Assembly: GCA_964016885.1 (NCBI GenBank)
Contig: OZ024742.1
Coordinates: 273,048,001 to 273,112,000, forward strand
DNA from: Eledone cirrhosa
Lineage: Eukaryota
Length of the DNA: 64,000 nt
Direction of reading: 5' to 3'
Both the position numbers and the translations under genes were made by a program. The notes under the pieces were generated by a model. It saw only the letters and a list, made by a program, of their open reading frames with translations. It did not search any database and was not told the DNA's origin. This document shows, piece by piece, positions 17,094-21,077 of this stretch (within the stretch, counting starts at the first letter, position 1; every line of letters begins with the position of its first letter).

Positions 17094-17223
17094 ACACTGG
17101 CCAATGAGAATTAAGACTATTCCTGCTGACAACATTAAATTATTCCTAACAAGCTCATATGTCCCAATGCTCTGATACCATAAACACTATAAACACAGAG
17201 CTGGCATATCTAAAAACTGACTA

Positions 17224-17279
17224 ACTGCCTGATGAGGTCATATCCATTCAATGGCTATCATCGAAATATATATAGCAGT
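17224..17279 (+). ncRNA. Type-I hammerhead ribozyme in 5' pLTR
   Basis: ACUGC-CUGAUGA-G..stem II..C-GAAA-UAUAUA-UA-GCAGU; stem I ACUGC/GCAGU; predicted cut after A17274. Confidence 0.85.
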
Positions 17280-17468
17280 AAATAAAGGATTATGAGTTCA
17301 TGCAATTGACTTATGTTTCGTCACTATTATAACTCCTGAACTTATATCTTCGTCGAGTGCTCCCTATCCGCATACTGAAGTACTGGATTTTACCAACACT
17401 TACTTACTTGCTTACCCCATGCTCCACACCCTGTTGAGCGCTTCATACAGTAGCGGACCGCAGCCAAT

Positions 17469-19664
17469 ATGAATAAACTCACCACTCTGGCATCACTGAA
17501 GGACATCCCATTACCGAGTAAAAGAGAATACACCAGGAATCTCACTAAGAGTACTGACTCCCTAATACGCAGGATGAGGTGGACGGCTTACCACTTTGAT
17601 AGAGGAAACCCCAATATTAATAACAAAAAAGCCATGGAGAGCCTCTTCAAATCAAGAAGGACCCCCCCCCCTCCACAATAGACTATTGGAAGAGTTAGAA
17701 AACGAAATGATTGGCATCATTTCCAATATCAAATTTTCCGACCGACCATACCGGGGTCGAGAGTACCTTAGACGACTGGAAAATGGAATTACCGAGCTTA
17801 AGGAATCTACAGGAATACTCGTCCATGCCGACAAAACCAACAACTTTTACAGCATGGAAGTTCAACTTTACCATGAGCTAATCCTCATGGAATTGAGAAA
17901 AAGCTGCAAAAAAACGCCTGAGGCTACCCTGGAGGATATCATCATCAAGGCTTATGAGATCGTATCTGGTCTTGGCATAGATGATAGGACGGCCCCATAC
18001 CAACCAAGGGAGCCGAGGATTACCATTAACGAGCACAAACAAAAATTCGAGTCTAACCTGCCGGTCAGACTGATAACCCCCTCCCGGTCAGACATGGGAT
18101 TATTAGCAAAAGCATTTTAGATAGGATCCTGCCCACACTTAAGAGTAAAATAAGGTTACAACTCTGGCCCTGCACCAGCCAGGTGCTGGACTGTTTCACA
18201 TTTTTACCTGACAAACAGAGGACTAGCTTCATACAACTAGACATCAACAATTACTACTCGTCTATCTTGCCCATAGTCCTGAACAAGGCATCATATTCGC
18301 GATGAATAGGACAGACCTAACACGTGACGAGGTCCAAATCATACACGCCGCCAGAAAGACCCTGATCCGATTCACTGGGGATATATGGACCCCGAGCAAC
18401 TGGCCAAATCATTTTTCATTACAATGGGCTTCATTGACTCCGCGCAGCTAACGGACTTGGTTGGGATATACATACTCTACGAGATCAGGAGTAAAGTACC
18501 CAACCTGGGTGGCAGGCTGTACCGAGACGACGCATTCTTCACCGTAGTGGACCACAGCGCCACAATGGTCGAAAATATGAAGAGGAGAATTAGGCACTTC
18601 TTTAGCAAGGTAGGACTTATAGTAGAGATGGAACCCAATAGAAAAGTAGTGAATTTCCTTGACACCACCCTCAACCTCAACACCAAGCTAAACCACTCAT
18701 ATCATAAACCCAATGAGAAGCTGGTGTATATCAACGCTGAGTCCAATCACCGTAGATCTATTATTAAGGCCGTAGTTAAGAGTGTCTCTGGCAGGATCTC
18801 TAACTTGTCGGCCAATAAAGAGATCTTCAATAATAACGGTGATTACTATAACTCAGCGCTAGCTAAGGCGTCCCACGGCCATAGGATCAGCTATAACCCT
18901 AAGGGACGTGATCGAGATGACCCAAGGGTACCCCGGACCAATACTCTCAGGGGCATGAGTCGCGATGGACCAAGGCGGACATCCAACAACCCCTGAAGAA
19001 TAGGACCAGGAAGGTCACATGGTATAACCCTCCGTACTCGGTGGGTCTACGTACCAGCCTGGCTAGAACATTCTTTAGAGTACTGGCTAAATGTTTCCCT
19101 AGGGCCCACAAGTACCATACAATATTCAACAGGCACACAGTGAAACTTTCCTACTCAACCACTCGCTCCGTAGCCCGTGAACCCCGGAGCCACCAAGCTG
19201 AACCAGCACGCGGGACGCACCAGAGCCCGGACAGGCCCAACTAGCACACCGGAACTCAACGACCCTGGGCTGATTGCGGCGGCAACCCAGCCAACCCCGA
19301 GTGATGGTAACCAAGCTGTACATGTGGTGGGGCTTAAGAAGTCATGTAATTGCAGAGACCCATCCCTATGCTCCCTCAGTAATGATTGCATGACGAAAAA
19401 CGTAGTCTACAGGTGCAGAGAAAATGTACGGCCCTTTTTGAATTGATCTGGAAGCTCAAACTTGAAAAGGGCCCGCACTCTCTGGTCTGGTCCGTGGTTA
19501 GAAAGGTTCCCCCAGACAGAGGCGGGTCTGGTATTTGCAACCTCTGTCTTAGTGAGACACTCGAGATACTTCATGGCGGAACCAAGCTATTAAACAGAAC
19601 GGCCGACTTATTCGATGCCTGCAGAGACCTATGGACGGAAACTTTCCTCAAGCTATATGGATAA
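17469..19664 (+). pseudogene. PLE RT + GIY-YIG polyprotein, multiply frameshifted
   Basis: ORF pieces 17469-17681, 17596-18120, 18385-18996, 19041-19244, 19177-19446 and 19386-19664 are collinear with PLE domain order. Confidence 0.88.
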
Positions 19665-20977
19665 ACCCCGGTTAAAGCCTCCCACAACGCCCCCTCCCCC
19701 TCCTGTAGGTCCCCTACACCCCGTACCAATGACCAATGGACAGCAACAACCACCCATAGTTTGTGGTCCCTATGGTGGATGGTCCACCGGATCCTCTACT
19801 GGTTAGGAGTCATCAAAACCGCGTTTTATTGAACCTGAGGACCCCCCCCCCGGGGAGCGGCCCACACAGGATGAACAATTATCCCAAGGTACTAACCTTA
19901 TACGCTTGAATGTGTGCCCGCAACCGTGCATTGTGTGTGTATACTGGGACTGCGTGAATGTACACACTCAAGTGAACGCAACGTAATACTAATACCCCAG
20001 GTCGGATTGATAAATGTTCGAGTGTATGCTTAAGAGCATATTTGTATATACTCTCTTGTATGAGTGCACATGTGTATATAGACATACACGCTCATCCAGA
20101 AATATAAAAGTGTGGGTGGGTATATATGTCTGTACTAAGGGATTTGCCTAAGCTCTAAAGCCCCCATGCTATTGTTGTGAAGATATATATCACCCTCTAC
20201 TTTTGTCTAGTCTAACCAATAACTTTTCCAAACACCCACTTTACTTTTCTTTAAAAATAACACCCACCTAGTTTTATGTCTGCCTTATACTTGGATTTGG
20301 GAGCCTCTGTCTTATATATATATATGCACTTGTGCGTACATATATATATATATACACACCTGTATGGATTTGTGTGTGTCTGAGTGGGTAGGTGTGAGTG
20401 TATGTACAAGTCAACCAACATAAGTCTTTTTATTTCTAAATTTTCTAAACTATCTAAGTATTTGACTCCAAACATTATTTTAAGTGTTACCACCCCACAT
20501 TAATTCCTCAATGTGCATGTGTGGATGTGTGTGTGTGTCTGTGGAGGTGGGTGTGAGTGTATGTGCAAGCCAACCTACATAAGTATTTTTATTTGTAAAT
20601 GTTCTACTCTAACCATAATTTTCAGTAGCACCACTCCACATAAATTCATCAATTTAAGAATGACCTGTAGTATCTATTTCATATTAATTGAATATATATC
20701 TATTAATCTTAATTGAATATATATCTGACCAGGAATGCTTTTTGTTAAAATCAGTCATATGGAACTATTGTCATCTTGCCTGACAGTTTGAACTTTACAA
20801 CACCACCTGCCTCTTTGAGGTCAAATACCAACCCTACTAGCATCTACAAACCGACCAATGAGAATTAAGATTATTCCTGCTGACAAAATTAAACTATTCC
20901 TAACAAGCTCATATAACCCAAGGCTCTGATACCATCAAGACTATAACCACAGAGCTGGCATATCTAAGAACTGACTA

Positions 20978-21033
20978 ACTGCCTGATGAGGGCATAGCCA
21001 TTCAATGGCTATCATCGAAATATATATAGCAGT
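20978..21033 (+). ncRNA. Type-I hammerhead ribozyme in 3' pLTR
   Basis: Same core; stem II AUAGCCAUU/AAUGGCUAU fully complementary; predicted cut after A21028. Confidence 0.87.
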
Positions 21034-21077
21034 AAATAAAGGATTATGAATTCATGCAATTGACTTATGTTTCGTCA

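Follow-up and report, generated by a model that had tools for sequence, protein, structure and literature searches.

How a Penelope-like element (PLE) chooses its target, and where on its RNA copying begins, are the questions raised by an element in a 64,000-nucleotide (nt) stretch of Eledone cirrhosa DNA (assembly GCA_964016885.1, contig OZ024742.1, positions 273,048,001 to 273,112,000 of the forward strand), hereafter, the window. Each of its two terminal repeats carries a hammerhead ribozyme whose stem III is the (UA)4 palindrome AUAUAUAU, and the element lies between (TA)n tracts. PLEs are the closest relatives of telomerase, and their start-site choice, tails and inverted ends form an open question (Craig et al., 2021; PMC8557442) that has been partly answered (Frangieh et al., 2024; PMC11167929). 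Comparison with related copies from the same genome shows two fixed positions beyond the hammerhead at which copies stop, each ahead of a conserved hairpin that likely positions the reverse transcriptase (RT), and does not support guidance of target choice by the ribozyme end. The features on which this reading turns are listed below, with offsets counted from the hammerhead cut (some counts start from 0, so values may shift by one).

17224..17279, plus strand: type-I hammerhead of the 5′ repeat, with AUAUAUAU as stem III and a private change that weakens stem II; cut predicted after 17274
17324..17327, plus strand: site 1, the first 3′-end site of the family; C, then TAT common to the target; about +50 to +53
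17332..17361, plus strand: hairpin 1; ACUC/GAGU basal helix, 2-nt pyrimidine bulge, upper helix, then GCU
17412..17414, plus strand: site 2, the second 3′-end site; T, then TA common to the target; about +139
17421..17442, plus strand: hairpin 2; GCUC/GAGC basal helix, UU bulge, then GCU
20978..21033, plus strand: 3′ type-I hammerhead; predicted cut after 21028

The focal family is large in this 3.0-Gb genome, with 1039–1500 first-look candidates, 40 of which were scored per search. In an unbiased tally of 30 copies, for which the query ended short of the ribozyme on its upstream side, 28 ended at site 1 or site 2: 27 at about +50 and one at +139, the remaining two being one end at +42 and one read-through, with none at the cut. 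The caveat in the original prediction, that copies end about 50 nt past the cut, describes what internal priming on a circular or tandem RNA predicts. When 20 copies were chosen by the start of the open reading frame (ORF), 18 had a visible 3′ end, 17 of them at site 1 and one at +26. Copies bearing the tail, the segment of about 89 nt between the two sites, ended at +137 to +145 (counted from 0) in 24 of 30 cases and read through in six. The other well-sampled families each have their own pair of sites. Ends in a sister family that encodes a 713-residue protein (copies selected by protein) fell at +28 or +116 in 28 of 30 copies, with two read-throughs; a family with stem III AUGCGCAU ends at about +43 and about +131, and one with AUGAUCAU at about +55 and +201–205. 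Junctions share 1–5 nt with the target, as judged by eye against a null mean of 0.7–1.4, and we claim no significance for this. (CA)n flanks adjoin 3 of 39 ends where the template reads UACAC and none of 174 other ends (Fisher p 0.006; few cases, noticed post hoc), which hints at primer pairing.

Directly 3′ of each end site lies a hairpin of constant design: RCUC, an upper helix with a variable loop, a pyrimidine-rich bulge of 1–2 nt, GAGY, and then RCU. Scanning 191 sequences with a hammerhead descriptor yielded 242 distinct ribozymes, which fall into 43 clusters; a strict pattern finds the hairpin in 19 of these clusters, and two further families that the pattern missed also have it. A covariance model (R1) was built from the first 17 examples. 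Its top four matches in the window comprised three in such elements (E-values 0.009–0.035, two of them matching training families) and, ranked fourth in the 64 kb, hairpin 2 itself (E-value 0.6), which was absent from the training set. In the fitted alignment, which has 56 distinct rows, pairing holds in 97.9% of cells and double changes (A-U to G-C, C-G to U-A) number 64; none of 500 shuffles reached the pairing or double-change values, and all slid controls were lower too. Across four families, 210 of 212 ends joined to TA lie at −16 to +3 from the hairpin start, and five further families fit the pattern with few copies each. Hairpin 2 was moreover predicted in two families before their read-through copies were at hand, and was later seen 7 nt beyond site 2 (L300) or at the site itself (L295); in the AUGCGCAU family, no read-through was present among the 28 copies shown of 30 at first, and two turned up later. 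The motif is also visible by eye in three of six published consensi (Hydra-2_Amil, Hydra-2_Ajap and, twice, Hydra-1_Ajap; PMC8557442 File S7), of which Hydra-1_Amil stops early. The comparison of sequences thus supports the paired hairpins at the end sites well.

The two sites also occur together in inverted insertions. Among head-to-head insertions with both outer ends visible, drawn from five families, 65 of 66 pair a site-1 end with a site-2 end (binomial p about 2e-18), and the remaining one joins two site-2 ends. One end of each kind fits priming by both ends of a cut target, one per hairpin, and agrees with how PAc, a Poseidon element of Anolis, behaves in vitro (PMC11167929). With slightly less confidence than we place in the hairpins as RT-positioning marks, we favor the view that PLEs of the Hydra clade have a bipartite start signal in their RNA, in which each bulged hairpin would dock one subunit of the RT-endonuclease (RT-EN) and cut TA ends would prime at two fixed sites through a few UA pairs, a fixing of the template like that of telomerase. 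In the proposed sequence of events, the RT-EN would bind the hairpins and cut both strands of a (TA)n tract, and each freed 3′ end would prime at one site with 1–5 nt of UA pairing (twin priming), so that target choice would stem from the protein rather than the ribozyme. Both hairpins precede the ORF in the unit, and a full-length copy can therefore be made only from a template in which hairpins come after the ORF; this would be either a circle, closed by ligation once the hammerheads of both repeats have cut, or an uncut tandem transcript copied with template switching. The palindromic stem III may additionally hold two template RNAs together. If true, the two-hairpin signal would account for the one-sided tail and the inverted structures, and, together with a ribozyme-made circle, for the pseudo-long terminal repeats (pseudo-LTRs) as well. 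The paired hairpins and the 65/66 rule would make up a precise, mutable cis-signal, and one that can be tested in vitro because a young sister family, that of the 713-residue protein, retains many intact ORFs.

Several observations weigh against this proposal. No hairpin was obtained in 24 of the 43 hammerhead clusters, many of which lack a read-through copy or represent other element types. Pair counts are inflated by relatedness among rows and by the fitting of the alignment to the structure, and several of the queries behind the count of 210/212 were drawn near end sites. Among the published consensi (PMC8557442), the motif was not seen by eye in Hydra-1_Obim and appears in Hydra-1_Crog only with a mismatch. 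Hairpin 1 is not the predicted fold of the focal RNA from +1 to +200, with a basal helix probability of 0.05 compared with 0.97 for hairpin 2, because an alternative pairing out-competes it in the folding model; its upper helix is weak in the 713-residue family, and hairpin 2 of the AUGCGCAU family carries a mismatch above the bulge. Furthermore, in 10 of the 14 focal inverted pairs the two arms each include sequence from upstream of site 1, so that one linear RNA would be insufficient and two RNAs or strand displacement would be needed. Finally, the motif could be read as DNA instead of RNA: the hairpins would then act in DNA or mark endonuclease resolution of an intermediate, and the ends would arise from DNA cleavage rather than from RT starts. 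The tail has been ascribed to endonuclease-mediated resolution (PMC8557442), and a Penelope endonuclease required the tail in DNA (PMC11167929). We nevertheless consider a DNA-level origin of the ends unlikely, as G-U pairs and compensatory changes fit a helix in single-stranded RNA, the genomic ends of PAc match RT start sites measured in vitro (PMC11167929), and the (CA)n-flanked ends concentrate where the template reads UACAC, with the same reservation of few cases noticed post hoc.

The original prediction held that double cleavage would release a unit whose end is complementary to (TA)n tracts, and that this might be linked to target choice or circularization; in the model drawn from it, the 3′ end UAUAUAUA pairs with (TA)n DNA, selects the target and primes copying. 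The complementarity is real, and a tally of flanks bears out the association with TA: in 25 of 30 focal copies the next bases are (TA)3 or more (a background of 3.1% of window positions), in four an interrupted TA tract follows, and one reads through. Pure (AU)n stems occur in five of the 43 hammerhead clusters, and all five include TA-terminated copies. If the cleaved end primed on TA, however, copies should stop at the cut, and the unbiased tally, with none of 30 there, refutes the model for 3′ ends. Likewise, if (UA)n in stem III mattered, families with other stems should target elsewhere, yet they too target TA: TA-terminated copies, with (TA)5 within 200 nt, also occur in 26 of 38 clusters with other stems, and families of this genome whose stem III is AUGCGCAU or AUGAUCAU, or has a large non-palindromic loop, end in TA in the same way. 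Among published Hydra families, the 25 for which a hammerhead is listed all carry AC...GU stems and none a (UA)n stem, and 24 are marked (TA)n (PMC8557442 Files S1, S2); 18 of 54 Naiad families, which lack canonical hammerheads, are listed as TA-targeted (PMC8557442). The AUAUAUAU self-duplex is also weak (−3.2 kcal/mol), and one cluster mixes AUAUAUAU with AUAUGUAU. Selection of the target by the (UA)4 helix or its cleaved end is therefore very improbable. Three focal 5′ junctions (L128, L129, L327) do fuse the (UA)4 run into TA, and other junctions do so at internal TA runs. Stem III would need only self-complementarity, for ribozyme dimers, and its (UA)4 form would at most give microhomology for 5′ joining.

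The ribozymes themselves are as originally described, with a complete type-I hammerhead in both repeats (ACUGC-CUGAUGA-G...C-GAA-AUAUAUAU-A-GCAGU at 17224–17279 and 20978–21033), that is, a core of CUGAUGA and GAAA, stem I ACUGC/GCAGU and stem III AUAUAUAU. Conservation of the core, which had been proposed as a check, is high and speaks against a chance motif: core and stem III columns carry the majority base in at least 75 of 78–81 family repeats, and both elements are intact in 26 of 30 independently chosen copies. An Rfam search of the window gave no hammerhead family up to an E-value of 10, its returns being confined to microRNA-like noise on TA tracts; the descriptor scan and conservation carry the identification. 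The 5′ copy has a private stem II change, and its hammerhead fold comes to −0.1 kcal/mol compared with −8.5 in the 3′ copy; as monomers, both reach their lowest energy (−12.5 and −14.7) in a fold where stem II is paired to the catalytic core. Stem III is an 8-nt palindrome that forms no monomer hairpin; its self-duplex, at −3.2 kcal/mol, is among the weakest compared (−10.5 for AUGCGCAU) and fits an unstable stem III of the dimer type. Perfect palindromes occur in 24 of the 43 clusters and pure (AU)n in just five, and one cluster holds both AUAUAUAU and AUAUGUAU. That the letters vary and the palindrome persists indicates conserved self-complementarity, as the dimer model expects (PMC4209133; PMC6765202).

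These ribozymes may also shape the template. A circle model was already proposed in 2014 (PMC4209133): RNA would be cut at both hammerheads, religated, and copied for more than one round from site 1 or 2, which is compatible with the hairpin mechanism. In its favor, the two repeats of single insertions share 82 non-majority variants (20 insertions), where shuffled pairings shared 15 on average and at most 40 across 762. Most of 30 copies selected by ORF start run upstream of the cut to scattered points, none of them at the pile-up of short-copy 5′ ends at −114 to −120, itself a possible transcription start, and a few 5′ ends lie exactly at the cut without help from TA (L312, L197, L290, L202, L206). 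Against it, the repeats of L116 carry different sub-family haplotypes at at least three diagnostic sites, so that two templates were used at least once, and full tandem donors exist (L031, and two of 30 in the 713-residue family). None of 30 ORF-bearing copies of that family, which is abundant and has A at core position U4, starts at the cut; the excess of ends there is weak (about four seen and about one expected by hand estimate, in two non-UA families); and hammerhead cleavage is dispensable in vitro for PAc (PMC11167929). Two of the 30 focal copies selected by ORF start begin at the cut, and variants specific to 5′ or 3′ repeats recur at nine and four sites, about chance by rough estimate. 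Circularization of the focal-family RNA is thus possible, and as the source of the template we would give it slightly less than an even chance. Rather doubtful is a hammerhead that is a passenger in this family and does not cut in vivo, with copies made from uncut transcripts by template jumps. The sequestered core of the monomer fold, the many short copies that cross an intact ribozyme up to about −117, and the published suggestion that hammerheads may parasitize such elements (PMC8557442) would suit a passenger; the core, stem I pairing and stem III palindrome are nonetheless kept, with compensatory changes, across dozens of divergent families.

The remaining features of the element and its surroundings are as follows.

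16892..17092, no strand: (TA)n target tract, upstream side; TA array
17093..17327, plus strand: 5′ pseudo-LTR; 5′-truncated end of the upstream unit, joined to the TA tract by TACA microhomology
17155..17161, plus strand: pile-up of family 5′ ends at −120 to −114 from the cut; 14 of 50 5′ ends (range −146 to +100)
17469..19664, plus strand: broken RT and GIY-YIG ORF; Hydra-clade motifs RW, ADKT, CxCx5C; several frameshifts and two deletions
19665..20841, plus strand: long 3′ untranslated region (UTR); internal TA/TG runs and an 82-nt duplication
20842..21077, plus strand: 3′ pseudo-LTR; stops at site 1, at +49, one base before the usual end
21078..21151, no strand: (TA)n target tract, downstream side; (AG)n comes next

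The direct repeat spans 236 nt (17088–17323 and 20842–21077) at 93% identity and a spacing of 3754. That spacing, originally given as a 3754-nt unit, holds for the window copy and not as the length of the family, as the cut-to-cut unit of sister copy L031 is 4148 nt; relative to L031, the window copy is missing about 298 nt at 18961 and another 103 nt at 19417, and the latter deletion takes out the YIG core of the endonuclease. The start, once placed at 17101, moves to a 5′ junction near 17093 at the TACA microhomology, and the 5′ end of sister copy L059 is identical to it. Arrays of (TA)n do flank both sides (16892–17092 and 21077–21151), and target-site duplications are unreadable within them.

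Between the repeats, the ORF remnant aligns piecewise to the 713-residue sister protein at 30–50%. ADKT, a change from DKG to DKT, is present in the window frame 17578–18120 and in 37 of 41 sister-copy matches, and the CxCx5C linker ahead of the nuclease reads CNCRDPSLC in the window and occurs in 18 of 21 sister matches. The N-terminal RWK position is RWR, a conservative variant, in 25 of 28 matches and RWT in the window. Inspection of sister L032 by eye shows a GIY-YIG nuclease (VIYRCKV...HYIG, CNLC..E, N...CRH), with CxxC and CxH around E and N and no CCHH motif. Pfam gave no significant family for the ORF pieces or the sister proteins, a PDB sequence search with the 713-residue protein gave no match, and PHROGs gave one weak match (phrog_314, homing endonuclease, E-value 0.021). 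The motifs of the RT-EN diagnostic of the Hydra clade are given in section 11 of PMC8557442, where canonical hammerheads are described as easily found in this clade and nearly all families as inserting in (TA)n; the focal family likewise combines a pseudo-LTR hammerhead with (TA)n insertion. A size below 3 kb, a descriptive and not diagnostic trait, is exceeded by the 4148-nt unit of L031. Motifs and by-eye comparison with the PMC8557442 supplement place the element, dead through its frameshifts and the loss of the endonuclease core, among the PLEs of the Hydra clade, as a new member of an existing clade; the ORF motifs and hammerheads agree with its first description as a PLE with dimer-type palindromic ribozymes. 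The RT-EN remnant rules out a non-long terminal repeat retrozyme (short non-coding tandem hammerhead units).

Related elements occur elsewhere in the genome. The 713-residue family (L081–L110, L221–L250; e.g., L096:1420–3558, minus strand) is young, very abundant and of Hydra type, with intact 713-residue reading frames. Core positions such as U4 follow the general hammerhead numbering; this family reads CAGAAGA, with A for U4, in all 42 cluster copies and has a looped, non-palindromic stem III, and seven of 30 of its 5′ ends lie at +125 to +139, within hairpin 2. The AUGAUCAU family (L161–L190; e.g., L188:1500–3209) is very young, with many copies 100% identical and no ORF seen after hairpin 2, and a relative, L268, has three hairpins before an ORF. 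Hammerheads with long stem II and a palindromic stem III of 10–12 nt (e.g., ACCGCGCGGU, ACCACCGGUGGU) occur in L111, L124, L126, L127 and L116. Retrozyme-like tandem units of 310 nt, each with a canonical hammerhead (stem III ACGCGU), are found in L014, L020 and L120, in both orientations in the last.

The window itself holds a third, short remnant of the focal family between TA tracts (668–835, plus strand), running from near −117 to site 1 with a damaged stem I. Another Hydra-type family is present at 13335–13500 (minus strand; stem III ACAAUUGU, hairpin at 13370–13402, TA end) with an ORF remnant at 13791–14529 (plus strand), and a further one, with AUAUAUAU as stem III, left ORF remnants and a degraded hammerhead at 23089–25159 and 27130–27240 (plus strand), with a TA end. 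A solo hammerhead of yet another family (stem III AUAUCUAU) lies at 9855–9915 (minus strand). A short TA-inserted repeat (27270–27500, minus strand; L141:435–471, L146:2693–2729, L121:197–233) bears the same hairpin beside a long GC-rich inverted repeat; three of the four copies showed no hammerhead core within 170 nt upstream, and the repeat is possibly a non-autonomous passenger using the hairpin. Upstream of the element, a 94-nt inverted repeat (16173–16266 and 16559–16652, 87% complementary) lies beside an ORF fragment like that of a long interspersed nuclear element.

Earlier publications already cover PLE hammerheads, insertion into (TA)n and the circular template; new are the two fixed end sites, the paired hairpins with compensatory changes and the rule of one site-1 plus one site-2 end. 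In twin priming by L1, both ends of the cut target prime on the element RNA and yield a 5′ inversion; the second priming there occurs at variable internal places, unlike the two fixed sites, with often overlapping arms, described here. The paired hairpin marking both end sites is apparently undescribed: a literature search that left most subscription papers, Repbase and the supplements of PMC11167929 outside its coverage did not find it in print, and the main text of PMC8557442 contains no mention of a hairpin, stem-loop or microhomology. The closest known elements are those of the Hydra clade (Craig et al., 2021; PMC8557442), which share RW and DKT, CxCx5C, CxxC and CxH around the nuclease E and N, a pseudo-LTR hammerhead, (TA)n insertion, partial tandems, inverted 5′ copies and a tail at one end. 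The focal family differs in its unit of about 4.15 kb rather than <3 kb, its low-complexity ORF insertions, 1.2-kb 3′ UTR and RWR in place of RWK, and its tail of about 89 nt compared with 30–40 bp stated for PLEs generally; its stem III begins with AU (8-nt palindrome), whereas all 25 listed Hydra families begin with AC. The ribozymes resemble the dimer-type PLE hammerheads of Cervera and de la Pena (2014; PMC4209133) in being type I, with short stem I, long stem II and an unstable palindromic stem III, one per pseudo-LTR, just the palindrome letters differing, and these vary freely among sister families here. PAc, itself a predicted dimer, likewise shows in vitro two internal starts downstream of the hammerhead that bound the tail, cutting of both strands and AT-rich targets (Frangieh et al., 2024; PMC11167929). 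The RNA fold of PAc, shown in Fig. S2C of that paper, may have a bearing on the hairpin. The starts in PAc lie inside the ORF, in one AC-rich stem-loop and without target homology, whereas the focal sites lie before the ORF, about 89 nt apart, each with its own copy of the hairpin and 1–5 nt of TA homology.

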